From NCBI GenBank assembly GCA_903889245.1, contig CAISWQ010000038.1, positions 68,763 through 132,762 on the forward strand: a DNA stretch of 64,000 nucleotides, read 5' to 3'. Shown here piece by piece: positions 35,516 through 64,000 of this stretch. Numbering within the stretch: position 1 is the first letter of the stretch; every line of letters begins with the position of its first letter. Made by a program: the position numbers and the translations under genes. Below the pieces are notes generated by a model. The model was not told where the DNA came from and made no database searches. It saw only the letters and a program-made list of their open reading frames with translations. Source of the stretch: an uncultured Lentisphaerota bacterium. GTDB lineage: Bacteria; Verrucomicrobiota; Kiritimatiellia; CAIQIC01.

Positions 35516-35576
35516 GAATGAAAAACAACGCAAAACAGATTCTTCCTTCGGTGAACCACGCAAAGGCATCTTTGAT

Positions 35577-35629: not shown

Positions 35630-35655
35630 TGGTGGCTGCGCTATGCTCGCGGCAC

Positions 35656-39962: not shown

Positions 39963-40057
39963 GCCCATCTTGCTTGGCCCGGCATGCCTTTGGAAAACGA
40001 GAAGTTCGGGCTTCCAATCCCGCTGCTGCGGGACAAGTCCTTGGAAGAGGTGAAAAC

Positions 40058-43317: not shown

Positions 43318-43454
43318 GTTTTCCAAGGCTTGGAAAATTTTCCGCGCGTTTTTCCAAGGCTTGGAAAAGTGGCGCCGGGTTGTTGCTGGCGGCGGGCCTG
43401 CTTTTTCCAATGCCTGGAAAAACGGCTGCCGCGACTTTCCAATCCTTGGAAAAC
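43318..43454. repeat. 4 palindromic units arranged as two doublets
   Basis: Units at about 43318, 43349, 43402 and 43435. The first two are noncoding; the last two are read as FPMPGKT....FQSLEN at the sulfatase N-terminus. Confidence 0.9.
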
Positions 43455-47285: not shown

Positions 47286-50200
47286 GCCTGAAAAAAAACC
47301 TGTGTGGTATCGCGTGCCTGTCGCTGGTGTGTTCGGCGGCGGAGGTGCAACTGGAAAAGCTGCGCTGCGAATATCTGGAGAATCCGGCCGCCATCGCGGA
47401 ACCGCAGCCGCGCTTGAGCTGGTTGCTCAATGCGGACCAACGCGGCCAGCGTCAGACCGCGTGGCAGGTGCTGGTTGCCAGCAGCACGGAGTTGTTGCAA
47501 AAGGATACCGGCGATCTCTGGGACACGGGGCGCGTCGCGTCCGACCAGTCCATTCACGTGCGCTACGCCGGCAAGCCGCTGGCGTCGCGACAGCAGTGTT
47601 TCTGGAAGGTGCGCGTCTGGGATAAAGACAACAAGGCTTCGGACTGGAGCCAGCCGGCGGCGTGGGGCATGGGTCTGCTGCAACCCGGCGACTGGACCGG
47701 CAAGTGGATCGGCAAGTACGAGCCGGAGAGCGAAACACTGCTCGTGGGGCCGCAGTGGATTTGGTTCCCCGAACCCGGCCCGCCGCCGGGCAAGCGCTAT
47801 TTCCGGCGCGTCTTTGATCTGCCGGAGGGCCGCGCGGTCAAGTCGGCGCGCCTGCTGGTCGCGGCCGACAATCTTTCCACGATCCATCTCAACGAACTGC
47901 AGCTCGGCCAGGCCAATCACGCGACTGTGGCCGGCGCGTTCGATGTCGCGGAGCACCTCAAGCCCGGCCGCAATGTGCTGGCGGTGCTGGTGGATAACCT
48001 GGGCACCGGTCCCAATCCGGCGGGCCTGCTGGTGAAGCTGCAGGTGGAGTTTGCCAGCGGCGAGCCGCTGACGTTGCTGACCGACGGCACATGGAAAGCG
48101 GCGCAGCCCGAAACGGAAGGCTGGACGAAAGCGGATTTCAACGACAGCACGTGGACGGCCGCGAAGGTCCTCGGTCCGGCGGGTGGCCTGATCTGGGGCA
48201 AGGTGCGCGAGCCGGAAAACCGCCGCCTGCCCGCGCGCTGGCTGCGGAAGGAATTTCAGGTGATCCATCCGGTCCGTCGCGCGGTGGTTTCGTTCGCCGG
48301 CCTCGGCCTCTCGGAGCTGCATCTCAACGGCGGCAAGATCGGCGACGCGGTGCTCTCGCCGGGGCTGACGGAATATCCCAAGCGCGTCTTCTATGTGACG
48401 CACGATGTGACGGCACAGGTGCGGCAGGGCACGAACGCCATCGGCGTCGTGCTCGGCAACGGCCGCTATTTCGCGCCGCGCCTGTTCTCGCCGATGAAGA
48501 CGGCGACCTACGGCTGCCCGAAGCTGCTGCTCCAGATGCGCATCGAGTACGCGGATGGTGCCGCCGCCACCGAGCTGGTCAGCGATGAAACCTGGCGGCT
48601 GACGACGAGCGGGCCGATCCTCGCGAACAACGAATACGACGGCGAGGACTACGACGCGCGCTTGGAACTCGCCGGCTGGTCGCAGCCGGGCTTCGATGCG
48701 TCGGGCTGGTCGCCGCCGATGATCGCCGCCGCGCCGGGGGGCGTGCTGGCGCCGGAGCCGATTGCGCCGATTCGCGTCATCGAAACGCTCACGCCCCGCG
48801 CCGTGACGGAGCCGAAACCGGGCGTCTTCATCTTCGACATGGGCCAGAACATGGTCGGCTGGTGCCGCCTGCGCGTCCGCGGCCCGGCGGGGACGGAAAT
48901 CTCGCTGCGCCACTCGGAGACGCTGAAGCCCGATGGCACGCTCTATCTGGACAACATCCGCGACGCGAAGGTGACCGACCGGTACACGCTCAAGGGCGGC
49001 GGCGAGGAGACCTGGGAGCCGCGGTTCACCTATCACGGCTTCCGGTTCGTCGAGGTGCGCGGCTGGCCGGGCCGGCCGGCCGCCGCAGCGCTCGAGGGCC
49101 GCGTGGTACACGACGACCTGCCGCGCGCCGGCGGGTGGAGTTGCTCGCATCCGCTGCTGAATCGCATCTACTCAAATGTCCTGTGGGGTACGCGCGGCAA
49201 CTACCGCAGCATCCCCACCGATTGCCCGCAGCGCGACGAACGGCAGGGCTGGCTCGGCGACCGCTCCGCCGAGGCGCGCGGCGAGAGCTTCCTGTTCGAC
49301 ACGGCCGCATTCTACGCGAAGTGGCTGCAGGACATCGCCGACGCGCAGCGCGCCGATGGCGCGGTGCCGAATGTCGCGCCGCCCTACTGGCCGCTCTTCG
49401 AGGCGAACGTCACGTGGCCCAGCAGTTTCGTCATCATCCCCGGCCATCTGCTCGACCAGTACGGCGACACGGCCACCCTCGCGCGCCAGTGGCCGGCGCT
49501 GACGAAGTGGATGGCCTTCATCGGCGCCTCGATGACCAACGACCTCGTGATGCTGGACCGCTACGGCGACTGGTGCGTGCCGCCGGAGGATCTGCACGCG
49601 ATCCATTCGCTCGATCCCGCGCGTAAGACCGCGCCCGCGATTCTCGGCACGGCCTACTATTTCCACTGCTGCCGCCTGATGGAGCGCTACGCGACGGCGC
49701 TCGGCAAACCCGACGAGGCGCGCCAATACCGCGCGCGCGCCGACAAACTGAAGGCCGCCCTCAACCGCGACTTTTTCAAGCGCGACGCCGGCTATTACGA
49801 CAACGGCTCGCAGACCGCGTGTGTGCTGCCGCTGGCGCTGGACCTTGCGCCCGCCGACCAGCGCGCGCGCGTGATGGCGCGGCTGGTCGCGAAGATCGCC
49901 GACGAAAGCAGGAACCACGTCGGCACCGGGCTGATCGGCGGGCAGTGGCTGATGCGGACGCTGACGCGCAACGGCCGCGGCGACCTCGCCTACACGCTCG
50001 CCACGCAGGAAACCTATCCGAGTTGGGGCTATATGCTCGGCCGCGGCGCGACCACGATCTGGGAACTGTGGAACGGCGACACCGCGAACCCCGCGATGAA
50101 CTCCGGCAACCACGTCATGCTTATCGGCGACCTCGTCACGTGGTTCCACGAAGACCTCGCCGGCATCAAGTCCGACGAAGCGCAGCCCGGCTTCAAGCAC

Positions 50201-50512
50201 ATCCTGATGCGCCCGCAGCCGGTCGGCGCCCTGACGTGGGTGAGCGCCACGCACCGCTCGCCCTACGGCCTCATCGCCAGCGCGTGGCGGATCGAGGGCG
50301 GCCAGTTCCGCTGGCACATCACCGTGCCCGCGAACTCCGGCGCCACCGTGTGGCTGCCGGCCGCCGACGCCGCGGCCATCCGCGAAGGCAGCCAGCCGCT
50401 GGCGAAAGCCGTTGGGCTGAAGGTGCTCCGCACCGAGCCCGGCGCGGTCGTCTGCGAGGTGGCCTCCGGCAGCTATGACTTTGAACTTCCGTGGCAGGCG
50501 GTGGCGCGGTGA
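47282..50512 (+). CDS. alpha-L-rhamnosidase, glycoside hydrolase family 78
   Basis: Signal peptide. RLSWLL...QTAWQVLVA N-terminal block. DCPQRDERQGWLGD matches the GH78 signature block. ATGA overlap with the upstream gene. Confidence 0.85.
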   Translation: MSLKKNLCGIACLSLVCSAAEVQLEKLRCEYLENPAAIAEPQPRLSWLLNADQRGQRQTAWQVLVASSTELLQKDTGDLWDTGRVASDQSIHVRYAGKPLASRQQCFWKVRVWDKDNKASDWSQPAAWGMGLLQPGDWTGKWIGKYEPESETLLVGPQWIWFPEPGPPPGKRYFRRVFDLPEGRAVKSARLLVAADNLSTIHLNELQLGQANHATVAGAFDVAEHLKPGRNVLAVLVDNLGTGPNPAGLLVKLQVEFASGEPLTLLTDGTWKAAQPETEGWTKADFNDSTWTAAKVLGPAGGLIWGKVREPENRRLPARWLRKEFQVIHPVRRAVVSFAGLGLSELHLNGGKIGDAVLSPGLTEYPKRVFYVTHDVTAQVRQGTNAIGVVLGNGRYFAPRLFSPMKTATYGCPKLLLQMRIEYADGAAATELVSDETWRLTTSGPILANNEYDGEDYDARLELAGWSQPGFDASGWSPPMIAAAPGGVLAPEPIAPIRVIETLTPRAVTEPKPGVFIFDMGQNMVGWCRLRVRGPAGTEISLRHSETLKPDGTLYLDNIRDAKVTDRYTLKGGGEETWEPRFTYHGFRFVEVRGWPGRPAAAALEGRVVHDDLPRAGGWSCSHPLLNRIYSNVLWGTRGNYRSIPTDCPQRDERQGWLGDRSAEARGESFLFDTAAFYAKWLQDIADAQRADGAVPNVAPPYWPLFEANVTWPSSFVIIPGHLLDQYGDTATLARQWPALTKWMAFIGASMTNDLVMLDRYGDWCVPPEDLHAIHSLDPARKTAPAILGTAYYFHCCRLMERYATALGKPDEARQYRARADKLKAALNRDFFKRDAGYYDNGSQTACVLPLALDLAPADQRARVMARLVAKIADESRNHVGTGLIGGQWLMRTLTRNGRGDLAYTLATQETYPSWGYMLGRGATTIWELWNGDTANPAMNSGNHVMLIGDLVTWFHEDLAGIKSDEAQPGFKHILMRPQPVGALTWVSATHRSPYGLIASAWRIEGGQFRWHITVPANSGATVWLPAADAAAIREGSQPLAKAVGLKVLRTEPGAVVCEVASGSYDFELPWQAVAR

Positions 50513-50517
50513 TTGGA

Positions 50518-50568
50518 TTTTTCCAAGGGTTGGAAAACGAAACACGAATTTTTCCAAGCCTTGGAAAC
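50518..50568. repeat. palindrome doublet (31 bp apart)
   Basis: TTTTTCCAAGGGTTGGAAAAC and TTTTTCCAAGCCTTGGAAAC, beginning 6 bp after the GH78 stop and 25-75 bp upstream of the URO-D-family start. Confidence 0.9.
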
Positions 50569-50592
50569 GGAGAGCAAGGGAAGGTGGCGAAC

Positions 50593-51726
50593 ATGAACAG
50601 TCGGGAACGGGTCTTGAGCGCGTTCGAGCGGCGCGGCTATGACCGCCTGCCGGTGAAGCACGAGGGCACGCCGGAGATCAACCGGATGCTGATGGAGCAC
50701 TTCGGCCTCGTCAATCAGGAGCAGCTGCTGCTGATGCTCGGCGATGATTTCCGCTACGTGGAGCCGCCCTACATCGGTCCGGAGCTGCGCACGTTCCCCG
50801 ATGGCAGCGTCGAGGGCTACTGGGGCGAGCACTACCGCTACGCCGAGTTCGCGGGCGGGCGCTACCTCGAGTCCTGCCATCAGCCGTTCGCCGGCGTCGA
50901 GCGGCTGGAGGACCTCGACCGCTCGCATTTCCCCTCGGCCGACTGGTTCGACTACTCGACGGTCCGCGCGCAGTGCGCCGCGCTGCGGCAGCGCGGCTTC
51001 GCCGTCTGCTTCGGCACGGCGGGCGACATGGATTTCATCAACAGCATCGCCCGCGCGCGCGGCACCGAACAGGTGCTGATCGATCTGGTCACCGATGATC
51101 CCGTCTATCTGGAGATCATGGAGGCGCGCTTCCGTTTCTATTTCGAGATGCACCGGCGCGTGCTGGAGGCGGCGGGCGGGCTGGTGGATTTCACGCACAT
51201 CGGCGAGGACCTTGGCACGCAGACGGCGCAGGTCATCAGCCACGAGGTTTTCGAGAAGCATTTCGCGCCGAAGTTCGGCGCCTACTTCGCGATGGTCCAC
51301 GCTCACGGCGCGCGCACGATGATGCACATGTGCGGCTGCTCGGCGGCCTTCCTGCCGCGGCTGATCGAGCTCGGGCTGGATGTCTATGACGTGGTCCAGC
51401 CCACCACGCCACAGACGGACATCGCCGTGCTGCAGCAGAAATTCGGCGACCGGCTGACCTTCTGCGGTAGCGTCTGCGTGCAGACGACGCTGGCGTTCGG
51501 CACGCCCGCGCAGGCCGCGGCCGAGGTCCGGCGGCGCCAGCACCTGTTCCCCAAGGGCGGCCTGTTCCTCGGCCCGACGCACGCGATCCAGGTCGGCTCG
51601 CCGCTGGAGAACATCCTGGCTCTCTATCGCACGGCGGGCAGCCTGCGGGAGACGGTGGATGAGGCCGTCCGCGCCGCCGGCGGCGCGGCGGCGGAAACCA
51701 AGGTCAACATGTCGAAGCTGTTTTAG
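50593..51726 (+). CDS. uroporphyrinogen-decarboxylase (URO-D) family protein
   Basis: N-terminus MNSRERVLSAFERRGYDRLPV. The whole protein resembles URO-D-like TIM-barrel enzymes. Confidence 0.7.
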   Translation: MNSRERVLSAFERRGYDRLPVKHEGTPEINRMLMEHFGLVNQEQLLLMLGDDFRYVEPPYIGPELRTFPDGSVEGYWGEHYRYAEFAGGRYLESCHQPFAGVERLEDLDRSHFPSADWFDYSTVRAQCAALRQRGFAVCFGTAGDMDFINSIARARGTEQVLIDLVTDDPVYLEIMEARFRFYFEMHRRVLEAAGGLVDFTHIGEDLGTQTAQVISHEVFEKHFAPKFGAYFAMVHAHGARTMMHMCGCSAAFLPRLIELGLDVYDVVQPTTPQTDIAVLQQKFGDRLTFCGSVCVQTTLAFGTPAQAAAEVRRRQHLFPKGGLFLGPTHAIQVGSPLENILALYRTAGSLRETVDEAVRAAGGAAAETKVNMSKLF

Positions 51727-51743
51727 AAAAACTGGAGCGCACC

Positions 51744-53387
51744 ATGATGGCAACCTCGCGACGCGACTTCCTGAAATTGGCCGGCCTCGGCGCGCTGGCT
51801 TTTCCAAGCCTTGGAAAAACTGCCCCCGCCGGTTTCCAACCCTTGGAAAAGTCGCGCCCCAACTTTCTCATCATCCTCGCCGACGACATGGGGTTCTCGG
51901 ACGCGGGCTGCTACGGCAGTGACATCCGCACGCCGCACCTCGACCAACTCGCCGCGCGCGGGTTGCGGTTCACGCAGTTCTATAACACCGGCCGCTGCTG
52001 GCCGACGCGCAGCGCGCTGATCACCGGCTACTACCCGCAGCAGATTCACATGGACCCGCCGCGCGGCCGGCTGCCGCCGTGGACGCGTACGCTGGCACAT
52101 CGCCTCAAGCCGCTCGGCTACCGCAGCTATCACTCCGGCAAGTGGCACGTGAACGGCGCGCCGCGCCCCGTGGCCGAGGGCGGGTTCGAACACTCCTACG
52201 ACCTGGAAGACCACGACCGGAATTTCAATCCGCAGAAAATTTTGCAGGACGACCAGCCGCTGCCGCCGGTGGCGAAGGGCAGCGGTTATTACACGACCAC
52301 GGCGTTCTGTGACCACGCGATCAAATGCCTGAAGGAGCACGCGGAAAAATATTCTGCGCAGCCGTTCTTCTCTTATCTCGCGTTCACGGTGCCGCATTTC
52401 CCGTTGCAGGCGCCGCCGGAAGACATCGCGCGCTACCGTGACCGTTACCTCATGGGCTGGGACAAGGTGCGCGAGGAGCGCTGGCAGAAATTGCGGGAGC
52501 TGAAGATCGTCGCTTGCGGCCTCGCGCCGCTGGAGCCGGGTTTTGCGCCGCGCTACTTCAAGCCGGATGTGCTCGCCAAGCTGGGACCCGGCGAGTCGAA
52601 GCACGCGGTGCCATGGGTGCAGCTGACGGACGAGCAGAAGCAGTATCAGGCGACGAAGATGGCGATCCACGCCGCGATGATCGACCGCATGGATGCCGAG
52701 ATCGGCCGCGTGCTTGCGCAGGTGCGCGCGATGGGCGCCTGGGAGAACACGGTCATCTTCTTCCTTTCCGATAACGGCACCGATGCGACGCTGCTCGTGC
52801 GCGGCGATGGCCACGACCGCGCGGCGGCGCCCGGCTCGGCGGGCTCGTTCCTCTGCCTCGGCCCCGGCTGGTCGAGCGCGGGCAATGCGCCGTTCCGCCG
52901 CCACAAGGTTTGGACGCACGAGGGCGGCATCTCGACGCCGCTGATCGTACACTGGCCCAAGGGCATTGCCGCGCAGGGCGAGCTGCGGCGCGACGTGGGG
53001 CACGTCACTGATTTCGTACCGACGCTGCTCGAGCTTGCTGGCGATACGGCCGCGCCGGCGGCGGGCGCGCCACCGCTGCCGGGCCGGAGTCTCGTCCCGG
53101 CGTTTGGCAGGGACGGCAGCGTGACGCGCGACGAGGTCTTCTTCCATCACGAGGGCAATCGCGCGCTCCGGCAGGGCAACTTCAAGCTTGTCTCGGCGTG
53201 CGAAGACCACAATGAATGGGAACTATTCGATCTGGCGGGCGACCGGTGCGAGCAGCGCAATCTCGCCGCTGCGCAGCCGGAGCGGGTCCGCGCCATGGCC
53301 GCGCGCTGGCAGCAGCTGCAGGAGCAGTTCACGCGCGACGCCGGTCCGGATCTGCCGTTTGCGAAGAAGACCAGAAACGATGATTGA
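51744..53387 (+). CDS. sulfatase (arylsulfatase-like), Tat-secreted
   Basis: Tat motif SRRDFLKLAGLGALA. FLIILADDMGFSDAGCYG and CWPTRSALITGYYP (C-x-P-x-R). Confidence 0.9.
   Translation: MMATSRRDFLKLAGLGALAFPSLGKTAPAGFQPLEKSRPNFLIILADDMGFSDAGCYGSDIRTPHLDQLAARGLRFTQFYNTGRCWPTRSALITGYYPQQIHMDPPRGRLPPWTRTLAHRLKPLGYRSYHSGKWHVNGAPRPVAEGGFEHSYDLEDHDRNFNPQKILQDDQPLPPVAKGSGYYTTTAFCDHAIKCLKEHAEKYSAQPFFSYLAFTVPHFPLQAPPEDIARYRDRYLMGWDKVREERWQKLRELKIVACGLAPLEPGFAPRYFKPDVLAKLGPGESKHAVPWVQLTDEQKQYQATKMAIHAAMIDRMDAEIGRVLAQVRAMGAWENTVIFFLSDNGTDATLLVRGDGHDRAAAPGSAGSFLCLGPGWSSAGNAPFRRHKVWTHEGGISTPLIVHWPKGIAAQGELRRDVGHVTDFVPTLLELAGDTAAPAAGAPPLPGRSLVPAFGRDGSVTRDEVFFHHEGNRALRQGNFKLVSACEDHNEWELFDLAGDRCEQRNLAAAQPERVRAMAARWQQLQEQFTRDAGPDLPFAKKTRNDD
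51800..51850. repeat. palindrome doublet embedded in coding (translated FPSLGKT....FQPLEK)
   Basis: CTTTTCCAAGCCTTGGAAAAA and GGTTTCCAACCCTTGGAAAAG, 32 bp apart, directly after the Tat signal. Confidence 0.9.
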
Positions 53388-53400
53388 GAGGAGCAGGCGC

Positions 53401-53705
53401 ATGAAAAAAACAATCTGGCTTGCGGGTCTGATGACGCTGGCGGCGGCGGCGCGACTTGGGCGAAAGCCGAGTATCAATCCATCCACGGAGTCATCAAATG
53501 CGACTGGAAGATCGAGGCGGGCAGATTCACGCTCCGCGCCACCGTGCCGCCGAACACCACCGCGACCATTCGCGTGCCCACGACCGCTGCGGCGAAAATC
53601 ACTGAAGGCGGCAAGCCTGTGTCGCCCGCAAGCACCACGTCTGACTGCGCGGTGTTCGAGGTCGGCTCGGGCAGCTTTGAATTCGTCTCGCCATTCAGCC
53701 GGTGA
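53401..53705 (+). pseudogene. gene remnant: a signal-peptide start fused out of frame to the last ~80 codons of a GH78 rhamnosidase
   Basis: ATG...MKKTIWLAGLMTLAAAA is followed, in a different frame, by AEYQSIHGVIKCDWKIEAGRFTLRATVPPNTTATIRVP...GSGSFEFV. That second part aligns with the C-termini of the GH78 genes at 14780 and 47282. Confidence 0.6.
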
Positions 53706-53746
53706 AAAAATCGCCGACCATGACATGGATATCAAAAGATAGAACG

Positions 53747-56700
53747 ATGAAAAGTTATTGCACGGCTGCACTCACCTTCCTTCTGCTCGGCTTCCAACTC
53801 ATTGCAGCCGTCAATCCTCGCGGCGGTTCTTGTGCTCCTTTCGATCTGACCACCGAGATGCAGGCGACTCCGCTGGGCATTGACCTCGACCAGGTCCGGG
53901 CGTCCTGGAAGATGCCGGTGCGGCTGGATGCCAAAGGGGCGGTTACACGCGACCAGCGGCAAACGGCCTATCAAATCCGCGTCGCCGCTTCGGCGCAGGC
54001 GCTGGAGAAAAGTCCGGCGGAACTGCTGTGGGACTCGGGCCGCATCGAGTCGAACGCCAGCCAGCTGGTGGCGCTGCCCGTGAAGCTTGATTCATTCCGG
54101 CGCTATTTTTGGACTGTCCGCGTTTGGGATGAGAACCAGCGCCCCGGCGATTATGCGCCGGCGACCTGGTTTGAAACCGGCGCGATCCGTCCCGCCGACT
54201 GGCAGCTTGGCGCTGCCTGCAAATGGATTCAGTCGCCGCTGACGCCGGTGGAAGACGAGAAGTTCCGCACATGGGCGAAGTTCGCCATCTTTCCGCTCCA
54301 GCCGCAGCTCGACAGATCGTGGACGATGTCGCCCGAAGACCTCGCCAAAGCGGACAAGGAATATTACGAACTGTTCCGCGACACGGCCTGGCCGGCGTCC
54401 CTGTTCCGGCGCGAGTTCGCGATCAGGAGTCCGCTGGTCCGGGCCAGACTCTACATTTCGGGGCTGGGCTATTACCGCGCGTTCTTGAACGGCCAAAAGC
54501 TGGGCGAGCGGGATTTAGCTCCCAGCGATTCGCATTTCGGGGTCAAGGTGAACTACCAGGTTTTCGATCTCACCTCGCAGTTGAACAGCGGCACGAACTG
54601 TCTGGGCGTGGAGGCGGTGACGGGTCGGCTGCGGGCCTGGCTGGGGCACACGCCGGAGCAATACCACGACCGCCCGGTGTTGCTGGCGCGGCTGGCGCTG
54701 GAGTATGCCGACGGATCGCAGGAAATCATTTCGTCCGACGAGTCGTGGCAATGTGGCGGCGGCGGGATTGAGCGGCAGAAGTTCTGGTGCGGCGAACTCT
54801 TCGACGCCAACACCGAACCGGTGGGTTGGAAACTGTCCGGCTTTGACGCGCGTGGCTGGGTCGCCGCCGAGGCAGCGAAACCCACACAGCCGCTGGGAGA
54901 ATTGCGATGGGATGCCATGCCGCCCGAGAAAATCGTCGAGCAAGGTCATCCGCTGAAGCGGACGAATCCTATGCCGGGAGTCTGGGTTTACGATTTCGGC
55001 AAACAATTGGCTGGCCGCGTGCGGCTGCACTTCAAGAATCTGCAAAAAGGCCAGACAGTGATTGTGCGTTATGCCGAGGCGATTGGCGGACAGGCCGAAG
55101 GGGTGCAACACAGCCTGGCCTACTACGATGGTTTTGGGAACACCGCACAGAAGCCGGGTACGCTCAAGTTCAAGCGCCGCGGCAGCGATGGCGCGTTCCG
55201 TTGGGCGGACGTCACCTTGCCCGGTGGAATAAAGCAAAGAGTGAATCAATGTTTCGGCGGACTGGCTTACACGGATATGTTTGTCTCCGCCGGCAAACCA
55301 GAGGAAGTTTGGTCGCCGTCGTTCACCTACACCGGCTTTCGTTATATCGAGGTGCTGGGGCTGCAAACGCCGCTGGAACTCGAAGCGGTGGACGGGTTCA
55401 ACCTGATCACCGTCTCGCCGCGCGTCGGCGACCTGACCACGGATAACACCAAGCTGAACCGCGTGCTGAAGGCGGTTCAGGACACGCTGGAGCTGAATTA
55501 CCATTCCCAGTTGCAGGACAACAACGGCGCTGAGCGCGGGCCGAACAGCGAGATGCCTGCGTTGAACAATCTCAACGTTGCCTACTGGCTGGGTCATCAC
55601 GCCCTCTTGAGCAAGCTGCTGGATGACAACATCAGGATGAGCGAGAAAACCCGCTGGCCGATCACTTTCGGTTGCGGCGCGCGGGCCACCACCGCCAACG
55701 CGCAGAATCACCACATTCTGCTTATAGACATGGATCATTACGGCCAGACGCCATCGGACTTGATGGCGTTCTATGGCGACCAGCGTTTGCTCGAACCGTT
55801 CATTCCGTGGATGAAAACTTTCATCCGGGAGGTGACCGAATACACCATCTGGAACCGGGTCACCCATTACGGCGATCACATCGCGTTGAGCGCGCAGGTG
55901 GATGTGCCGGAGCTGCGCGGCGAATACAAGACCCTTCCGGAAATGTTCGCGCAATGCGACGTGGCGATGCGCATCGGCCACCGGATGACGGACTTGCTGC
56001 AAGCGGTCGGGCGGCAATCGGAAGCCAAGGAAATCCAAGGCATCATGGATCGTTTCCAGCAGGATTGCTCCAGCCGTTTCTTCGATGCCCAGACTGGCGC
56101 GTGGTTGCCGATGCTTTACACCCGCCAGCAGTTGAACGCGGCCTTGGACGACGGCGGTTTCGAGCCACGTCCGTCGCGTGAGACGATGGCGAAAGAGATT
56201 GTGGAAGAATTCAAAACCAAGACCAAAGGCCACCTGATCACCGGCTCGCGGTTGAGCGATCCCATGCTGCACCTGCTCAGTCAGGGCGGCCAGGCCGACA
56301 CCGCCTGCGACATCCTGCTCCGCGAAGAATTTCCGAGCATCCTGAACATGATCAGCGGAACGGGCAACACAATCCGCGAAAGCTGGGGCGAAAACGACGC
56401 CTTCTCCCAGATCGAAGGCGTCACCGCGATGGGCAACTGGTTCTATCGTGACCTGGTGGGAATCGCCCCCGACCTCCGCCAGCCGGCGTTTGCGCACTTT
56501 GTGCTGCGGCCCATCCTGCCGCGTCAGTTGAACTCGGTGAAGTTCAGCTACGAAAGTCCGCGCGGTTTGATCCAGAGCCGGATGCTCCGCCAGAAAAAAC
56601 GTTTGCAGTGGGACGTGACCGTGCCGCCCAACACCACCGCCACCGTCTCGTTTCCCGCCGCCGCGCTCAACCAGATCACGGAGTCTGGCAAGCCGGTGCT

Positions 56701-56794
56701 GAAGGTCAGCGGGGTCGCTGCCGCCGCAGACACCAATGGGCAGCCGTCGGTGCAGCTCGGATCGGGAACTTACCACTTTGAAATGCCGCAATGA
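53747..56794 (+). CDS. GH78-family alpha-L-rhamnosidase-like protein (third paralog)
   Basis: Signal peptide MKSYCTAALTFLLLGFQLIAA. An RASWKM...QTAYQIRVA N-terminal block is homologous to the other two GH78 genes and the length is similar (about 1015 aa). The track ORF starts at 53702. Confidence 0.75.
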   Translation: MKSYCTAALTFLLLGFQLIAAVNPRGGSCAPFDLTTEMQATPLGIDLDQVRASWKMPVRLDAKGAVTRDQRQTAYQIRVAASAQALEKSPAELLWDSGRIESNASQLVALPVKLDSFRRYFWTVRVWDENQRPGDYAPATWFETGAIRPADWQLGAACKWIQSPLTPVEDEKFRTWAKFAIFPLQPQLDRSWTMSPEDLAKADKEYYELFRDTAWPASLFRREFAIRSPLVRARLYISGLGYYRAFLNGQKLGERDLAPSDSHFGVKVNYQVFDLTSQLNSGTNCLGVEAVTGRLRAWLGHTPEQYHDRPVLLARLALEYADGSQEIISSDESWQCGGGGIERQKFWCGELFDANTEPVGWKLSGFDARGWVAAEAAKPTQPLGELRWDAMPPEKIVEQGHPLKRTNPMPGVWVYDFGKQLAGRVRLHFKNLQKGQTVIVRYAEAIGGQAEGVQHSLAYYDGFGNTAQKPGTLKFKRRGSDGAFRWADVTLPGGIKQRVNQCFGGLAYTDMFVSAGKPEEVWSPSFTYTGFRYIEVLGLQTPLELEAVDGFNLITVSPRVGDLTTDNTKLNRVLKAVQDTLELNYHSQLQDNNGAERGPNSEMPALNNLNVAYWLGHHALLSKLLDDNIRMSEKTRWPITFGCGARATTANAQNHHILLIDMDHYGQTPSDLMAFYGDQRLLEPFIPWMKTFIREVTEYTIWNRVTHYGDHIALSAQVDVPELRGEYKTLPEMFAQCDVAMRIGHRMTDLLQAVGRQSEAKEIQGIMDRFQQDCSSRFFDAQTGAWLPMLYTRQQLNAALDDGGFEPRPSRETMAKEIVEEFKTKTKGHLITGSRLSDPMLHLLSQGGQADTACDILLREEFPSILNMISGTGNTIRESWGENDAFSQIEGVTAMGNWFYRDLVGIAPDLRQPAFAHFVLRPILPRQLNSVKFSYESPRGLIQSRMLRQKKRLQWDVTVPPNTTATVSFPAAALNQITESGKPVLKVSGVAAAADTNGQPSVQLGSGTYHFEMPQ

Positions 56795-56949
56795 ATCCAA
56801 CTATCCAACGCCTTTCAGCCGCCGTTCCCCGGGGCAGAGTTCTGTCTTCGCCGGCGCAACTGGCCGGCTGCGACACCGACGGGCTCGGCTACAAAAGCTT
56901 TCGGCCCGACGAGGTGGTGATTCCGGCGGACGCGGAAAAGTTAATTGCA

Positions 56950-57131
56950 GCTGTGGGCGCGGCGCGCATGGCTACATCCCCACGGCGAAGGCCTTCGCCG
57001 GCGGCAGCTACGAAACGTGGTTCGGCGAGCACTCCTACCTCATCACGCGCGCCGGCGAGATCACCGAGAGGGAAGCGTTGGACATCCTGGAGCGTTTGAA
57101 AGGCGCGGCGCAAAACAAAACCCGACGATGA
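56950..57131 (+). pseudogene. 3' fragment of a neutral-ceramidase-like gene (C-terminal ~55 codons only)
   Basis: The fragment encodes GAHGYIPTAKAFAGGSYETWFGEHSYLITRAGEITEREALDILERLK. It is about 85-90% identical at nucleotide level to 59390-59530, the C-terminus of the gene at 58195-59547. No upstream part of the gene is present. Confidence 0.6.
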
Positions 57132-58198
57132 ACACTACGCAACCAGTCCGCATGAAGACACGCTGCTGCATAGTGGCACTGCTGGCCGTAGGGTGCAGTT
57201 TGGCCCGGGGCGCAGAACTGCTGGACCGGCCCAAGAGCCTGTTCATCTCGCCATCCGCGCTGTGGAACATACCGGACGCGAAAATCCGCGAATGGTTCGA
57301 GCACATCTCCGCGCACCACCGGACGCCGGGCAGTCCGCAACGGATTGATGCGCTCGTGTTGTCGGACATCGCCGATGTTGATCCCGGCGACCCTTCGGGT
57401 TCCAGCGCGCGCCTGCTCGCGACGCCGGCAGCGGGCATGCCCACCAACTGGTGCCATCCGCTCAATCACAAGCTCGATGTCATCGCGCCACACTTCAAGA
57501 ACTTCGACGCCGTCTATGTGGGGACGGCCCACATCGCTTGGAAGGGCGCGGGCAACGCCTATGACACGGGAATTCTCGACGCAGGTTTCCGGCAGAAGAA
57601 TCTGCGGATCGCCACCAACGCGCTGGACCGCTTCATTGCGCGCTACCCGGACTTGAACTTCAAGTGGTATATCTCCTATGAGGCCAACCTGAACTGCTTC
57701 ACCGACCCCAAGATCAAGGATGCCTATGTCGCCTATCTCGCGGAACTGTGCCGGCAGATGAGGGCGCGCCGCGAGGCCCCCATCCTCTGGTCGCCGAACT
57801 GCTGGTCGAAATTCGATTCGCTGTCGGAAACGAATCGCGCCGCGCTCGTCGTCAGCCTAAAGGATTTCTTCGCGCGCGTCCCCATCACCGACCTGCACTA
57901 TCAGGATTTCATGGGCGGCAGTTCCGCGTCCGGCCCGTATCGCTTCACGCCACAGGATGTCAAAGGCTACTACGACCTGCTCGCCGGCCTGGGCGGCCCG
58001 CGCGTCCGTGTCAACGTGGAGATGTTCGTCGTCACCGACCTGAAAAGCTTCTCGCTCGCGCCGATGAGCCACGCCGACTATGTGCAGCGCATGCGGGACT
58101 ACGACAAGCTGCAACTGCCGCTCGGTGCCTCGTGGGAAATCCGCTACTGGTATCCGGCGCATCAGGGCGCTGCGCCCTGCAGAGGAACAAAACCATGA
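57128..58198 (+). CDS. secreted hypothetical protein
   Basis: ATGA overlap with the fragment ORF. Signal peptide MKTRCCIVALLAVGCSLARGA. No recognised motif. Confidence 0.55.
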   Translation: MNTTQPVRMKTRCCIVALLAVGCSLARGAELLDRPKSLFISPSALWNIPDAKIREWFEHISAHHRTPGSPQRIDALVLSDIADVDPGDPSGSSARLLATPAAGMPTNWCHPLNHKLDVIAPHFKNFDAVYVGTAHIAWKGAGNAYDTGILDAGFRQKNLRIATNALDRFIARYPDLNFKWYISYEANLNCFTDPKIKDAYVAYLAELCRQMRARREAPILWSPNCWSKFDSLSETNRAALVVSLKDFFARVPITDLHYQDFMGGSSASGPYRFTPQDVKGYYDLLAGLGGPRVRVNVEMFVVTDLKSFSLAPMSHADYVQRMRDYDKLQLPLGASWEIRYWYPAHQGAAPCRGTKP

Positions 58199-59547
58199 CA
58201 ACCCGGCAACGTTTCCAAGGATGGGAAATTGAAAGCAGTGGTTTTTCCACGCCTTGGAAACTGCTGCCGCTCGCGCTGCTGGCGGTGTGGCCGGCGCTGG
58301 CCAGTGACACGATCAAGGCGGGCGTGGGCATGGTGGACATCACACCGGCCGAGCCGGTCGTGCTGGCGGGTTCGCCGACCAGGCTGAAGTCCACGGCGGT
58401 CGGCACGCATCTCTATGCGAAAGCGCTGGTGCTGGCCGGCAATGGGTAGCGGGTGGCGATCGTCACCTTGGACACGTTGAAATATCCCGTGGACTGCGTC
58501 GTGCGGGCGCGCCAGGCCGTCGAGCAGGCCACCGGCATCGCAGCGAGCAACGTCATCATCTGTGCCTCGCACACGCACCGCGGTCCGCTGTGGCCCTCTT
58601 ACAAGGATCAACTCGTGACGCCCATCGCCGACGCGGTGGCGCAGGCGGCGCGCGACCTCGCGCCGTGTACGCTCGGTGTGGCGCAGGGCAGGGTCGAGGG
58701 CGTGAGCAAATGCCGCCGCGTGATCAAGGAAGGGCACGCTTGGAACCGCTGGCAGTTGCCGGCGGCGGAGCAGGAAAAATATCCGGCGGAGAGCGCGCTC
58801 GATCCCGCAGTGGGGGTACTGGCGGTGACCGGCCAGGACGGAAAGTATAAGGCAGTCGTGTTCAACTTTGCGTGTCACGCCGCCAACACGCGCGCCCTCG
58901 CGGTCTCGGCGGATTTTCCGGGCGATGCGCAGCAGGTGGTGCAAAAGAAATTGGGCTATGCCGTGCCCACGCTGTTTCTCACCGGCGCCTGTGGCGATGT
59001 GAATCCCATCTACAGCGCGAAACGCGAATTGTTCGGCGAGAAGCTCGGTGGCGAAATCATGCGCTGCCTGGGCCGGCTTGAACCGATCCAGAAGCCGACG
59101 CTGGCGCTGGAATGCCGCGAGTTGCACATGCCGGGCCGCGAGCAGCCGGAATTCAAGGAGGCGGAGGTGATCCGCAACTGGCCCGGCCAGCTTGAGCACT
59201 ACAGAAAATCGTTCAGCGACATGAAGCAGCGGGCCAAGCCGGCCTATCCATTTTTCATCACCAGCCTGCGTCTGGGCGAGGACTTCACCATCGTGACCAA
59301 TCCCGACGAGCTGTTCTGCGAAATCGGTTTGAGCATCAAGCAGCAGTCGCCCTTCAAGCACACGCTGGTCGTCGAGCAGGTCAACGGCGCGCACGGCTAC
59401 ATCCCCACGGCGAAGGCGTTCGCCGGCGGCAGCTACGAGACGTGGTTCGGCGAGCACTCCTATCTCACCACGCGCGCCGGCGACATCATCGAAAAGGAAT
59501 CGCTGGACATCCTGAATCGCTTGAAGCACGCTGAACACAAGCCCTAG
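58195..59547 (+). pseudogene. neutral/alkaline ceramidase-like gene interrupted by an in-frame TAG at 58447-58449 (pseudogene, sequencing error or stop-codon readthrough)
   Basis: The two track ORFs 57748..58449 and 58453..59547 are in the same frame. Read together they align across the TAG with the intact paralog at 60948: ...AKALVLAGNG*RVAIVTLD versus ...AQAVIIASGGKRLAIVGVD. The downstream segment ICASHTHRGP matches the ceramidase catalytic region. Confidence 0.55.
58211..58261. repeat. palindrome doublet (degenerate, 32 bp apart) at the 5' end of the ceramidase-like gene
   Basis: GTTTCCAAGGATGGGAAAT and GTTTTTCCACGCCTTGGAAAC. If the ATG at 58195 is the start, they are read as RFQGWEI....FSTPWK before the hydrophobic signal segment. 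Confidence 0.75.
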
Positions 59548-59636
59548 CAGCTCTCCGCGCTGCCTGTTGCCGGGCCACCGGCGCGGGCGCGCGTTGGCGG
59601 CGGAAAAATTACTGAAGAAAGTTTCTGGAACAACAC

Positions 59637-60941
59637 ATGAACAACAAGCACAGCCAGACGAGCCGGCGGACTTTTTTGAAAAAAATCACCGCGGCTACCG
59701 GCGCGGTGATGTGCCCAGCTTTCATCCCCGCGCCGGTCTTGGGACGCGGCGGTGCGGTGGCGCCGAGCGAAAAAATCGGGCTGGGCGTGATCGGGATGGG
59801 CTCACGCTGCGCGGTGGTGCTGGATTCGATGCTGGGCGAACCGGATGTGCGTTGCCTCGCGGTGTGCGATGTGCAGGCTGGCCGCCGTACGAGCGCGAAG
59901 GCGATGGTGGACTCCCGCAATGGCGCCAAGGATTGCGCCACCTACGGCGATTTTCGCGAGCTGCTGGCGCGGCCGGACATCGATGCCGTGCTCATCGCCA
60001 CCGGCGATCGCTGGCACGCGCTGGCCTCGATCCTGGCGGCGCGCGCCGGCAAGGATATTTACAGCGAGAAACCGTGCGGGATCAACAGCGCCGAGTGCGC
60101 GCTGATCGAGACGACGATGCGCCAGTGCGGGCGGGTCTATCAGGGCGGCACGCAGCGCCGCAGCGTGGCTAATTTCCAGAAGGCGGTCCAACTGGCCCAC
60201 AGCGGCAAGCTCGGCCGGCTGCGCACGCTCCATGCGTCCGTCTATGAACCCTTCATCAATCTCGCCTGTCTGCCGGCCGAGCCGGAGCCGCCGCGCGCGG
60301 AGCTGGATTGGGACATGTGGCTCGGCCCCGCGCCGTGGCGGCCCTACAACCACCGCTACGTCGCCGGCCGCGGCTGGCAAGGCTACGAGGATTTCACCGC
60401 GGGCGCCAACCTGATGGATTGGGGCGCGCACACGGTGGATATCTGCCAGTGGGCCAACCGCGCCGACGCCAGCGGCCCCGTCGAGTTCGAACTGGCTCCC
60501 GACAAAATCCTGGCGCGCTATGCCAACGGCGTCGTGCTCGAACTCAACTACGAGCGGCGCGTGCCGCAGCAGAGCCAGTTGAACCTGGGCACGTGCCCGG
60601 TGCGGTTCGTCGGCGACGAGGGCTGGGTGGAAACCGGCGATACCGGCGAGATCGCCGTCTATCCCGCTTCGCTGGAGAGTGCCCTGCACCGCGGACAGAA
60701 AGTCACGGGCCTCGACGCGGGCGGCCACGCGCGGAATTTCTTCGACTGCGTCCGCTCCCGCGCAGCGCCGGTCGTCAATCCCACCGTGATGAAGCACAGC
60801 CACAACGCCTGTCTCGCCGCCGCCACCGCGTGGCAGCTCAACCGCAAAATGACATTCGATCCGGTGAAGGCCGAGTTCATCAACGACGACGAAGCCAACC
60901 GGCTGCGTTCCCGCGCCATGCGCGAGCCGTGGATCATCTGA
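59637..60941 (+). CDS. Gfo/Idh/MocA-family NAD-dependent oxidoreductase with Tat signal (GH109-like architecture)
   Basis: Tat motif SRRTFLKKITAATGAV. Rossmann region GLGVIGMGSRCA and DAVLIATGDRWHA. Confidence 0.8.
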   Translation: MNNKHSQTSRRTFLKKITAATGAVMCPAFIPAPVLGRGGAVAPSEKIGLGVIGMGSRCAVVLDSMLGEPDVRCLAVCDVQAGRRTSAKAMVDSRNGAKDCATYGDFRELLARPDIDAVLIATGDRWHALASILAARAGKDIYSEKPCGINSAECALIETTMRQCGRVYQGGTQRRSVANFQKAVQLAHSGKLGRLRTLHASVYEPFINLACLPAEPEPPRAELDWDMWLGPAPWRPYNHRYVAGRGWQGYEDFTAGANLMDWGAHTVDICQWANRADASGPVEFELAPDKILARYANGVVLELNYERRVPQQSQLNLGTCPVRFVGDEGWVETGDTGEIAVYPASLESALHRGQKVTGLDAGGHARNFFDCVRSRAAPVVNPTVMKHSHNACLAAATAWQLNRKMTFDPVKAEFINDDEANRLRSRAMREPWII

Positions 60942-60947
60942 GCACAC

Positions 60948-62297
60948 ATGAAACACGTCCTCACCATCCTCGCCGCCTGGCTGCTTTGGCCGCTGGCGGC
61001 GGCTTCATCCGAAAGCAGTCTTGAGGTCGGCTTTGGTCAAGTGGATATCACGCCGCCGGTCGGGGGCATCATCACGGGGCCGGCCTCGCCGGTGAGCACG
61101 GGCACGGATGATCCGCTCAAGGCGCAGGCGGTGATCATCGCGAGCGGCGGGAAAAGGCTGGCCATCGTGGGCGTGGACCTGGTGAAGATCCGCCACGATC
61201 TGGCCGAGGCCGCCATCACGCAGGCCGCGCAGCGGGCGGGGCTCGCGCGCGAAGCGGTGCTGATCTGCCCGAGCCACAACCATAGCTCGCCGCTGATCCC
61301 GGCGCACGGCGACAAGAACACCATCAACCGCGACTATATCGCCACGCTGCCGAAGGCGATTGCCGACAGCATCGAGCAGGCGAACAAAAACCTGCAGCCC
61401 GCGCGCCTCTCCATCGGCCGCTCGCTGGTCTACGAGGGCCACATCAACCGCCGCGTGCTTTCCAAGGCGGACGGGCTCGCGCTGAACGTGTGGCTGAAAA
61501 AAGTGAACGACCTCAAGCAGGTGCCGCAGGTGCTGGGGACGGAAGGCCCGATCGATCCCGAGCTGTGGGTGGTCCGGTTCGATGCGCCCGATGGAAAAAT
61601 GCTCGGGGCGCTGGTGAACTTCACCTGTCATCCGTGCCTGCATGACCGCATCCAAACGCACAACTGGTCGGCGGACTACCCCGGCGTCATCGCGGCGCAG
61701 CTCGCGCAGGCGTTCGGGCCGCAGGCGAAGTGCATCTTCATGCAGGGCAGCGCCGGCAACATCCAGCCGGCGGTCACGTTCACGCCCGACTGGCTGGAGC
61801 GCGCGTCGGTGTTCGCGCGCGCCGCGGTCGAGGCCGCCAGTAACGCCGTCGCCGTCGCGGGGCCCATCGCCGTTGACTATGCGCGGCGCGACGTGGCGGT
61901 GCCGCGCTGCAATCCCGCGGCCCAGCGCGAGGGCGCCATCGAGCGCCTCGGCTGGCGGCCGGAAGCCTTCGAGGGCACCAAGCGCACTGCCGCCGCGCTG
62001 CCCGCCATGCTGACGGTCCCCGTGAGCGCCGCGCGCCTCGGCCCGTTCGCGCTCGCGACCAATCCCGGCGAGCTCTTCGTCGAGTGGGGACTGGACATCA
62101 AGAAACGCTCGCCGTTCCCGCACACCATCGTGAGCGAACTGACCAACGAGTCGATCGGCTACGAGCCCACCGCACTGGCCTTCCAGCACGAAGGCTATGA
62201 AACGCTCTCCGGCGTCAACTACGTCGCGCTCGCAGGCATCCAGCAACTGGTGGATACAGCGGTGGAGCTGTTGCAGCAGTTATGGGCGCAGAAATGA
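60948..62297 (+). CDS. neutral/alkaline ceramidase-like hydrolase (intact paralog)
   Basis: Signal peptide MKHVLTILAAWLLWPLAAA. GFGQVDITPP, LICPSHNHSSP and a C-terminal ESIGYEPTALAFQHEGYET. Collinear with the gene at 58195-59547. Confidence 0.75.
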   Translation: MKHVLTILAAWLLWPLAAASSESSLEVGFGQVDITPPVGGIITGPASPVSTGTDDPLKAQAVIIASGGKRLAIVGVDLVKIRHDLAEAAITQAAQRAGLAREAVLICPSHNHSSPLIPAHGDKNTINRDYIATLPKAIADSIEQANKNLQPARLSIGRSLVYEGHINRRVLSKADGLALNVWLKKVNDLKQVPQVLGTEGPIDPELWVVRFDAPDGKMLGALVNFTCHPCLHDRIQTHNWSADYPGVIAAQLAQAFGPQAKCIFMQGSAGNIQPAVTFTPDWLERASVFARAAVEAASNAVAVAGPIAVDYARRDVAVPRCNPAAQREGAIERLGWRPEAFEGTKRTAAALPAMLTVPVSAARLGPFALATNPGELFVEWGLDIKKRSPFPHTIVSELTNESIGYEPTALAFQHEGYETLSGVNYVALAGIQQLVDTAVELLQQLWAQK

Positions 62298-62315
62298 CCC
62301 AGAACTGGCAGAAAC

Positions 62316-62433
62316 TTTTCCAAGGATTGGTCCCGACCTCGCAGCGCGTCGGGATTCCAAGCCTTGGGAAATCCCCGGCGCTTTTTTCCAAGCCTTGGAA
62401 AAAACGGCCGAAAATTTTCCAAGCCTTGGAAAG
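62316..62433. repeat. array of 4 palindromic units lying between convergent gene ends
   Basis: Units at about 62316 (degenerate), 62352, 62383 and 62414. The last two are near-perfect (TTTTTTCCAAGCCTTGGAAAAAA and ATTTTCCAAGCCTTGGAAAG). Confidence 0.9.
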
Positions 62434-62476
62434 CGCCGACGGATATTTGTTTTACCGCGGGTGAACCGCGCCGGTT

Positions 62477-63105
62477 TCAGTCGAGATGGATGATGCCCTG
62501 CCGGATGGCTTCGATGGCCGCCTGGGTACGGCTCGTGACGCCGAGCTTCATGAACAGGTCGCGCAGGTGCGTCTTGACACTTTCATCGCCGATGGCCAGC
62601 GCGGTGGCGATTTCCTTGTTGCTCAGGCCGTTGACCAGATGCTGTAACACTTCGAGTTCGCGCGGCGAGAGGTCCTTGCGCCGGCTGCGTTCGCGCTGGC
62701 GCGCGGCGGCGTCGGGCGGCATGACGCGCCCGCCACGATGGATGGTGCGCACGGCGGTGACCAGTTCGGCGCTGGTGAGATCCTTGAGGACATAGCCGCT
62801 CGCGCCGGCCTGCAGGGCGCGATAGATATCCTCATCGCCGTCATAGACCGTGACGATCAACACGTGCGTGGCGGGCCAGCGCTTGCGGATGGCGAGTGTG
62901 GCCTCGACGCCGCCGCCACCGGGCAACCGCAAATCCATCAGCACGACATCGGGCTGGTGGCGCGCACACTGCGCCAGCGCCTCGGGTACGTCGCCGGCTT
63001 CGGCCACCACGCGCATGTCGGGTTGGCCGCTAAGAATGGTGCCGAGTCCGACGCGCAGCGCCGGATGATCATCCACGATCAGGATGGAGATGGTGTCAGG
63101 CATGT
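62477..63105 (-). CDS. NarL/FixJ-family response regulator (REC plus LuxR-type HTH)
   Basis: MPDTISILIVDDHPALRVGL...VLMDLRLPGGGG. HTH LSPRELEVLQHLVNGLSNKEIATALAIGDESVKTHL. The internal ATG at 63103 is preferred over the track's longer ORF. Confidence 0.85.
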
Positions 63106-64000
63106 GGCACGGTGAGTTCGATGGTGGTGCCCGCGTTGGGCGCGCTGCGGATGTGCAAGTTGGCGTGGAGCGCGCTGGCGCGGGCGCGCATGCCGGGCAG
63201 GCCGAAGCCGCCGTGGTCGGAAGCCGGCGGGGTGGCGTCCAGTCCGCGGCCATCGTCGCTGACCGCCAGGCGCACGGCGGCTTCCTGATAGTCCAACGTC
63301 AGCGTGATTTTTTTGGCCTGCGCGTGGCGCACCGCATTCGTCAGGGCTTCCTGTCCGATGCGCAGGAGGTCGTTCTCCATCTGGGCCGGCAGCGGGCGTG
63401 GCGTGCCGCCCGGGCGGAACTCGAACGCGACAGCGCTGCCTTCGGTGAGCTGGCGGCCGAGCCGTTCGAGGGCTGCGCCGAGCGAGCCTTCTTCGAGCGC
63501 CTGCGCGCGCAGCGCCCAGACGGTGTGCCGTGCCTCGGCGAGGCTCTGGCGTACCAGTTGGCGCGCGAGGTCGAGATGGCGGCGCGCGGCGTCGGGGATT
63601 TCTCCCAGCCGGTCACCGAGCGCTTCGAGTTGGATGCTGATGCCGGCGAAGCCCTGGGCTAGGGTGTCGTGAATTTCGCGCGCCATGCGGTTGCGCTCGG
63701 CGAAGACCGCCGTGAACTGCGCCCGCGCCGCGGCCCGCGCCTGCCGTTCCTCGCGTAAGCGCCGCCACGCGCGCAACCAGAGCGCGCCGAGTGCGACGGC
63801 GAGGATGGCGGCGACGGCAGCGGCGATCCGCAGAGGTGTCCACCACGATGGCGCGGCCAGCAAGGTCACGTCGGCGAAGCCGCGCGCGAGCAGGATGAAG
63901 CCCTGCGGTTTGCGGTGCGTGACGAACGCCTCCCAACTCCCGACCTCGGCCTCGCAGACGCCGCGCACGGCCAGTTCGCTGCCGATACGCCACGGCAGTT
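63096..64000 (-). CDS. sensor histidine kinase (HisKA_3 plus HATPase_c), C-terminal part; N-terminus beyond the window end
   Basis: TM helix LRIAAAVAAILAVALGALWL. H-box ERNRMAREIHDTLAQGF. The ATPase region includes VSDDGRGL. The frame is open to the window edge. The gene overlaps the regulator start by about 10 nt. Confidence 0.8.
   Translation of the reverse strand, partial: LPWRIGSELAVRGVCEAEVGSWEAFVTHRKPQGFILLARGFADVTLLAAPSWWTPLRIAAAVAAILAVALGALWLRAWRRLREERQARAAARAQFTAVFAERNRMAREIHDTLAQGFAGISIQLEALGDRLGEIPDAARRHLDLARQLVRQSLAEARHTVWALRAQALEEGSLGAALERLGRQLTEGSAVAFEFRPGGTPRPLPAQMENDLLRIGQEALTNAVRHAQAKKITLTLDYQEAAVRLAVSDDGRGLDATPPASDHGGFGLPGMRARASALHANLHIRSAPNAGTTIELTVPHA

Follow-up and report, generated by a model that had tools for sequence, protein, structure and literature searches.

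A helically phased palindrome array between two convergent genes of an uncultured Kiritimatiellia bacterium probably belongs to a lineage-wide family of dispersed repeats

Clusters of REP/BIME elements in E. coli have been proposed to serve as boundaries or to act as 3' hairpins, and REP families are usually species-specific in sequence. REPIN doublets, described by Bertels and Rainey in 2011, are said to be mobilised by RAYT transposases. Rickettsia palindromic elements (RPEs), which are 100–150 bp long and CGTC-tagged, occur as in-frame insertions in protein genes. Arrays of repeated sites are also known from plasmid iterons and from the pap operon, where Lrp sites lie about three helical turns apart, and the DNA uptake sequences of Neisseria (DUS) and Haemophilus (USS) are non-palindromic 9–12-mers with no tandem phasing. 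REPs are palindromes of 20–40 bp carrying a GTAG or CGTC tag; they are found mostly between co-directional and convergent ORFs, sometimes within genes, and frequently have a RAYT transposase associated with them (Di Nocera et al. 2013, PMC3733652).

The palindrome array investigated here is located in a stretch of 64,000 nucleotides from an uncultured bacterium (hereafter the window), which has a GC content of 64% and encodes sulfatases, GH78 and GH127 enzymes, a PATR protein and Y_Y_Y histidine kinases. Among named homologues, those nearest to the window genes are encoded by Kiritimatiellaeota and Verrucomicrobia MAGs, so that the window most likely derives from this lineage. The array occupies nearly all of a 179-nt gap bounded by two stop codons, one of a ceramidase-like gene (+ strand, 62297) and one of a response regulator gene (- strand, 62477), with margins of 20 nt and 45 nt. 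An original prediction had put the array after both gene ends, and the stop positions and Pfam domains of the flanking genes agree with that placement. According to public gene calls the response regulator comprises 208 aa; a histidine kinase gene is found upstream of it on the same strand, and an ATGA stop/start overlap is present at 62294–62297.

Four copies had been predicted in the gap. Three of these (62355, 62386 and 62417) are good copies of the 15-bp palindrome TTCCAAGSCTTGGAA, with start-to-start distances of 31 and 31 bp as determined with a repeat finder, whereas the fourth (62318) is a decayed remnant with three mismatches that is off phase (Table 1). The three strong copies form an inverted repeat with arms of 38 nt (62355–62392 and 62394–62431, 82% complementary), centred on copy 3 because the two spacers are roughly reverse complementary to each other. 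An independent Logan assembly of the same sequence (L071:4063–4174) ends within this array, 132 nt past the ceramidase-like stop, which suggests that short-read assemblies are broken by the repeats.

Table 1 Palindrome copies, arrays and flanking genes in the window, and further convergent cases at loci of related genomes. Distances given for arrays are from copy to copy.
Feature	Position	Strand	Details
Lone perfect copy	1875–1889		TTCCAAGGCTTGGAA; inside ORF 1402–3189, in BNR_2 (bacterial neuraminidase repeat) match
Five copies, 31/32/31/31 bp	7332–7471		4 nt past stop codon, upstream of Y_Y_Y histidine kinase gene
Two copies, 31 bp	11350–11395		From response regulator stop to start of PATR (passenger-associated transport repeat) autotransporter-like gene
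Two copies, 32 bp	14681–14727		Non-coding; 52 nt ahead of GH78 (alpha-L-rhamnosidase family) start codon
Pair in sulfatase CDS	17627–17673		Between signal peptide and sulfatase domain
Pair in sulfatase CDS	19098–19144		Directly after TAT (twin-arginine translocation) signal; FPRVGK...FQGLEK
Four copies, 31 bp	30076–30183		Precedes trehalase-like gene
Two copies, 32 bp (35580/35612)	35580–35626		In low-GC stretch
31-bp pair, then 32-bp pair	43321–43451		Second pair within sulfatase N-terminal codons
Pair in sulfatase CDS	43405–43451		32 bp; second pair of the preceding row; between signal peptide and sulfatase domain
Two copies, 31 bp	50521–50566		8 nt past a stop, 26 nt short of next start codon
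Pair in sulfatase CDS	51802–51848		After TAT signal
Family member	58213–58259		Within first codons of second ceramidase-like gene
Ceramidase-like gene, left flank	60948–62297	+	Ceramidase_alk, PF04734; stop 20 nt 5' of copy 1
Copy 1, decayed	62318–62332		TTCCAAGGATTGGTC, 3 mismatches; 37 bp before copy 2, off phase
Copy 2	62355–62369		TTCCAAGCCTTGGGA, 1 mismatch
Spacer, 16 nt	62370–62385		AATCCCCGGCGCTTTT; GC-rich core amid A/T runs
Copy 3	62386–62400		Perfect TTCCAAGCCTTGGAA; centre of 38-nt-arm inverted repeat
Spacer, 16 nt	62401–62416		AAAACGGCCGAAAATT; approximately the reverse complement of the 62370–62385 spacer
Copy 4	62417–62431		Perfect TTCCAAGCCTTGGAA
NarL/LuxR-type response regulator gene, right flank	62477–63103	-	Response_reg + GerE; stop 45 nt past copy 4
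Convergent case, Radical-SAM/BATS vs metA-type HTS gene			Margins 6 and 5 nt; Pfam
Convergent case, AP_endonuc_2 vs SIS+CBS protein			Pfam
Convergent case, unassigned ORF vs recA			Four-copy array; Pfam
Convergent case, SLT-domain protein vs dihydroorotase-like amidohydrolase			Pfam
Convergent case, two ORFs	L054, 5307–6047 and 6133–7911		No Pfam match on either side; GC3-based calls alone

The unit of the array is a perfect 15-bp palindrome, TTCCAAG-S-CTTGGAA, usually with a T run and an A run on its sides. When the window was searched with TTCCAAGNCTTGGAA, allowing up to two mismatches, 32 matches were found compared to 0.09 expected, a number equalled by none of 100 shuffles, and the matches fall in 14 places, mostly as runs of 2–5 copies. 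Over 585 kb, comprising the window and the related loci, the distance between neighbouring copies was 31 bp in 39 cases and 32 bp in 87, all other distances occurring at most twice each; this spacing equals three turns of the DNA helix. Across 293 copies, the six outermost positions of either half (TTCCAA and TTGGAA) were ~97% invariant, positions 7 and 9 were G and C in 80–84% of the copies, and the central base was G or C in 287.

Substitutions in the 293 copies were one-sided, with no excess of compensatory pairs. Neither self-complementarity of the spacers and outer flanks above the control, nor correlation between the centre bases of adjacent copies, nor array polarity (orientation EM) was detected. 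The spacers were scarcely more similar to each other than shuffled ones, though their length is fixed, and spacer similarity was 2–3.6 times higher within a genome than between genomes. The lack of compensatory changes and self-complementarity, together with the uncorrelated centres, argues that a long hairpin between copies is not maintained by selection. Copies that could be oriented, being located between co-directional genes, carried 16 G-U-compatible transitions on the sense strand vs 8 of the opposite kind (p = 0.15), which is a weak hint of tolerance at the level of transcription and nothing beyond that.

Several of the places listed in Table 1 have features of their own. The copy at 1875–1889 sits deep in a coding region and not at a gene end. 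Immediately after the five-copy array, and ~55 nt ahead of the Y_Y_Y histidine kinase start codon, a perfect inverted repeat with a 16-bp stem is found (7474–7507; CCCAGTTGCACACCTC tt GAGGTGTGCAACTGGG) that is unrelated to the motif. The four-copy array at 30076–30183 is open in frame with the trehalase-like gene (30184–31443), for which the Pfam match begins at profile position 113 of 512. The region 34000–40000, encoding TSP3-repeat, PD40 and PGAP1-like lipase proteins, has a GC content of 51–56% vs ~65% and may have been horizontally acquired; it nonetheless carries the motif pair 35580/35612.

According to the original prediction, the convergent position of the target array is an exception to a rule by which the arrays lie upstream of genes. 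The genomic context was surveyed in 74 source sequences (the window and 73 loci from related genomes) using a simple GC3-based gene caller. By the calls of this crude tool, 56 arrays were located between two nearby genes, 35 of them co-directional, 11 convergent and 10 divergent, compared to 173 co-directional, 32 convergent (13%) and 41 divergent among 246 background gaps; the arrays are thus distributed close to the background mix, in proportion to the gaps available. A Pfam check, confined to the ten ORFs flanking five other convergent cases, gave domain matches for eight. At one locus, L021, a two-copy array occupies a 58-nt gap between two stop codons. The apparent upstream rule stems from the window itself, where almost all genes are encoded on the + strand. 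With 11 of 56 arrays in convergent gaps vs 32 of 246 background gaps, the convergent context is regular for the family, so that the target is no exception and a promoter-operator model for the family as a whole falls. The accompanying statement that the array is no simple promoter operator for either flanking gene was borne out, as it lies past both stop codons and no promoter-like site was detected. The target array is, with little doubt, a member of the family that is neither an operator nor exceptional in its position.

At three loci, all on the - strand, the last motif copy ends 0–3 nt ahead of an ATG (...TTGGAAAAC ATG; L035:~3060, L048:~6225 and L036:~4046), the genes behind these start codons being leuS-like, glgA-like and one other. 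At these genes, the ribosome-binding site may thus include part of the motif's 3' half.

The gap was also examined for coding and RNA features. Public gene calls for the identical contig contain no gene in the 179 nt, and no coding remnant was found there. Small ORFs crossing the gap have a GC3 of 0.49–0.62 vs 0.82–0.88 in the flanking genes, and their "proteins" are the repeat read in three frames. The window gave no match at the gathering score of Rfam 15, and when the gap was searched with E values up to 1 only sub-threshold look-alikes of miRNA hairpins were returned. The check for small ORFs and sRNAs that the original prediction had proposed yielded neither, the GC3 of the ORFs being far below that of real genes and no Rfam family being matched. 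No sigma-70-like promoter was detected across 50000–64000, and the promoter and terminator scan gave no excess compared to shuffles: 12 terminator-like matches were found vs 11.8 expected in the scanned region, with one weak match (62364–62378) in the gap. An intrinsic (Rho-independent) terminator was rejected, as there is no U tract or GC-rich stem and the stem of the motif is A/T-rich and followed by A, not T. The terminator proposed as one alternative thus lacks its canonical features, the single weak match being at chance frequency. Folded as RNA, either strand of the gap forms two long hairpins through pairing of neighbouring copies (-81.1 kcal/mol), with z-scores of -6.1 and -5.0 for the two strands; such strong folding is expected of any run of palindromes.

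Four sulfatases encoded in the window contain an in-frame pair of copies with 32-bp spacing at the junction of signal peptide and sulfatase domain. Copy 1 is translated as F-P-x-[L/V/P]-G-K and copy 2 as F-Q-x-L-E-K/N, three of the four spacers encode an AxA-like cleavage site (A-P-A, A-A-A and S-A-A), and the Pfam sulfatase domain starts 10–13 nt past copy 2. The TAT signal model TIGR01409 scored above cut-off for two of the enzymes; in the sulfatase at 19038 the match (residues 3–29) runs through copy 1, and in that at 51745 it ends at residue 20, the first residue of copy 1. No other NCBIfam model, and no sorting-signal family, matched the array-encoded peptides. The four proteins share 23–35% sequence identity and their 47-nt modules 74–83%, and the modules are just as similar to the non-coding pair at 14681. 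The codons used in the copies are rare here (CCA 4%, GGA 4%, CTT 5%, TTG 10% and CAA 16% of synonymous usage). No larger 5' module shared among the sulfatases was found, as the genes resemble each other only in the TAT codons and the array, and the upstream non-coding DNA is unshared. The same in-frame layout recurs in another genome (L064, and L024). The pair in these genes is a DNA- or RNA-level element that is tolerated or kept in coding sequence and not a protein motif. A gene conserved between two genomes (L008:1737–1751 and L031:~2653) ends in codons supplied by one motif copy (…DEV[F/L]QALEKS stop), and the second copy of the pair is present in one genome only.

The exact phased pair, with copies 31–32 bp apart, was found at at least 70 loci in at least nine species-representative MAGs labelled Kiritimatiellae, Kiritimatiellales, Lentisphaerae or Verrucomicrobia, and among the matches listed it occurs on dozens of contigs per MAG. 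The identical 15-mer is found in genomes with GC contents of 57–74%, whose shared genes have roughly 75–80% nucleotide identity. In 20 metagenome loci encoding ceramidase-like homologues with 63–78% identity the motif is absent and the neighbouring genes differ too, and no phased pair was found in viral contigs. The family is confined to one lineage. The motif string was not found in the literature, nor was any paper connecting Kiritimatiellota to palindromic repeats or promoters; judged by its sequence features, the family would be an apparently undescribed variant of REP/BIME-like repeats in this phylum.

Individual arrays vary between related genomes. A pair is present in L050 between two genes that overlap (ATGA) in L033, and another in L049, 13 nt past the pgk stop, is missing from L032. 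Of the second ceramidase-like gene, the window version carries two copies within its first codons, the L072 version a single copy ~70 nt upstream, and the L077 version none. The genes downstream of the motif-bearing ceramidase-like homologues in L072, L076 and L077 differ from those of the target. A pair of perfect 15-mers at exact spacing is unlikely to result from point mutation, and new arrays would seem, more tentatively, to arise by a copying process, in line with the greater spacer similarity within genomes; the unconserved spacers argue against copy-and-paste of whole doublets. A search for RAYT genes by regular expression in the ~0.65 Mb sampled returned one Y1-like ORF, encoding a Y1 (IS200-like/RAYT-like) transposase of 361 aa (L036:30–1115). 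It is flanked by its own inverted repeats, GGGGTCGCATCTATAAATA (within L036:1–1160), which are unrelated to the TTCCAAG motif, an arrangement resembling the 'TIRYT' class (PMC3733652).

Compared to the systems described above, the family is most similar to REP/BIME elements: the palindromes are short (19–21 bp when the T/A runs are included), numerous (32 copies in 64 kb), clustered in gaps that include convergent ones, located in some cases in coding regions, and variable between related genomes. Unlike REPs, they lack a conserved GTAG/CGTC tag, only T/A runs being found beside the core in the 293 copies, and they do not avoid divergent gaps (10 of 56 arrays vs 41 of 246 background gaps). They further differ from REPs in being perfect palindromes with strict 31/32-bp phasing that are conserved across several genera-level genomes, and no association with RAYT genes was found in the ~0.65 Mb sampled. 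As in REPINs, the fixed-distance pair is the most common arrangement; a REPIN was nevertheless rejected, as the copies are not selected to pair, their centre bases are uncorrelated, the flanks are non-complementary and the spacer is near random. No flanked RAYT was found in the ~0.65 Mb sampled.

The sulfatase pairs are reminiscent of RPEs in that translation continues in frame through a palindromic repeat and an otherwise normal protein gains a peptide, but differ in consisting of two 15-bp cores at one defined site, the signal peptide/mature protein junction, in unrelated sulfatases. Runs of 2–6 copies at whole helical turns with free spacers are also found in phased operator arrays such as the Lrp sites of pap and iterons. 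Those arrays are restricted to few promoters and degenerate, whereas the present motif hardly varies and is found in most gene gaps. Uptake sequences share a density of about one per 1–2 kb, conservation above the species level, inter- and intragenic location and frequent pairing at gene ends; they were set aside since the palindromic, tandem-phased anatomy differs. A CRISPR array, with repeats of 23–47 bp, unique spacers of similar or larger size and few loci, was likewise rejected, given cores of 15–19 bp, spacers of 12–17 bp, 2–5 units per array and 14 loci in the window alone, and an integron attC site was set aside on anatomy.

On balance, we regard the target array as probably a member of a dispersed repeat family found throughout this lineage and not a regulatory site of either flanking gene. 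Among the three alternatives of the original prediction, that of a REP/BIME-like element fits best, while a terminator and a lost gene found no support. The family could be purely selfish, a REP/REPIN- or MITE-like miniature mobile element moved by a putative transposase, with the copy in the gap as neutral filler. This would be in line with its high density, its occurrence in every gap class, its overlap with gene ends and its presence/absence differences between related genomes, as well as with spacers that are more alike within than between genomes and with the break of the independent assembly L071 in the array, as at high-copy repeats. We nevertheless consider it rather unlikely, considering that the same 15-mer persists over such a range of GC content and nucleotide identity, that spacers are near random yet fixed in length, that neither a GTAG/CGTC tag nor, in the ~0.65 Mb sampled, a RAYT link was found, and that four anciently diverged sulfatases carry the pair at the same position and frame, which is hard to obtain by random insertion. 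An action at the RNA level, in which the converging transcripts end in hairpins of neighbouring copies that terminate transcription or block exonucleases, is unlikely. Divergent gaps, which contain no 3' end, are equally array-rich, some copies lie just past start codons, and there are no compensatory changes, the pairing of adjacent copies not being under selection; a U tract and a GC-rich stem are lacking as well, with one weak terminator-like match at chance frequency. The strong folding of both strands, the two-copy array filling the stop-to-stop gap in L021 and the weak sense-strand excess of G-U-compatible changes (16 vs 8) are the points in favour of an RNA role, and REPs have been reported to be transcribed and to lie mostly downstream of coding regions (PMC3733652).

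Two further explanations concern the target gap more specifically. The array could be what remains of the 5' region of a + strand gene that was located downstream of the ceramidase-like gene until it was deleted or the response regulator/kinase pair took its place. In L072, a 78% homologue of the ceramidase-like gene is followed by an ATGA overlap, a motif copy and a truncated signal-peptide-like ORF fragment, and the same ATGA overlap is found in the window at 62294–62297. However, the 5' end of the other ceramidase-like gene (58195) is a better match for this fragment than the target is, the gap is without a coding remnant, and with ten further convergent arrays such a history is unneeded, making a lost gene very unlikely. 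Least plausible is a function as operator for the adjacent NarL/LuxR-type response regulator or as promoter of an antisense or small RNA. Two NarL/LuxR-type regulators are encoded in the window, and TTTCCAA-n-TTGGAAA may resemble the sites, inverted heptads, that are bound by BvgA and other NarL/FixJ-family regulators, but the motif is not specific to a regulon, adjoining leuS-like, glgA-like, pgk, recA and metA genes, the array is found at the 3' end of the regulator gene, and the region 50000–64000 gave no sigma-70-like promoter and the window no Rfam match.

Returning to a dispersed repeat family, the invariant half-sites, the free spacers of fixed length and the lack of compensatory stem changes point to a motif that would be read as double-stranded DNA by a putative symmetric, dimeric, sequence-specific protein. 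Several dimers could then occupy neighbouring sites on the same face of the helix, every three turns. The half-sites are ~11 bp apart centre to centre, with a G:C pair at the dyad axis and a spacing of 31–32 bp, and the properties of a phased protein-binding array, i.e. whole helical turns, conserved half-sites and free spacers, were all found. We give a protein array with a putative binder an even chance. As the array makes up nearly the whole spacer of two converging operons, any action there would most likely be that of a boundary, either as a protein-bound barrier or as a 3' pair of long hairpins on either transcript, along the lines proposed for E. coli REP/BIME clusters; from this analysis, a real boundary function in the target gap is conceivable but doubtful.

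The result for the target itself is deflationary, in that a convergent position is normal for the family. For sequence analysis, the arrays break assemblies, create short spurious ORFs encoding peptides such as FQGLEK, FPSLGK and FSKAWK, and can mislead start-codon calls at secreted enzymes. Kiritimatiellota are major degraders of sulfated polysaccharides, and we know of no work on how these bacteria organise or control their very large complement of sulfatase and glycosidase genes. Speculatively, the palindromes may be docking sites of a putative global DNA-binding protein specific to the Kiritimatiellota lineage that would act as an insulator or nucleoid organiser, its dimers being aligned at transcription-unit borders at intervals of three helical turns; selection would then hold the sites, against codon bias, in signal-peptide codons where intergenic space runs out. 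A near-invariant, helically phased palindrome at most gene borders of this island is useful for mapping the borders of transcription units, and it offers a handle to fish out the protein that may read it.
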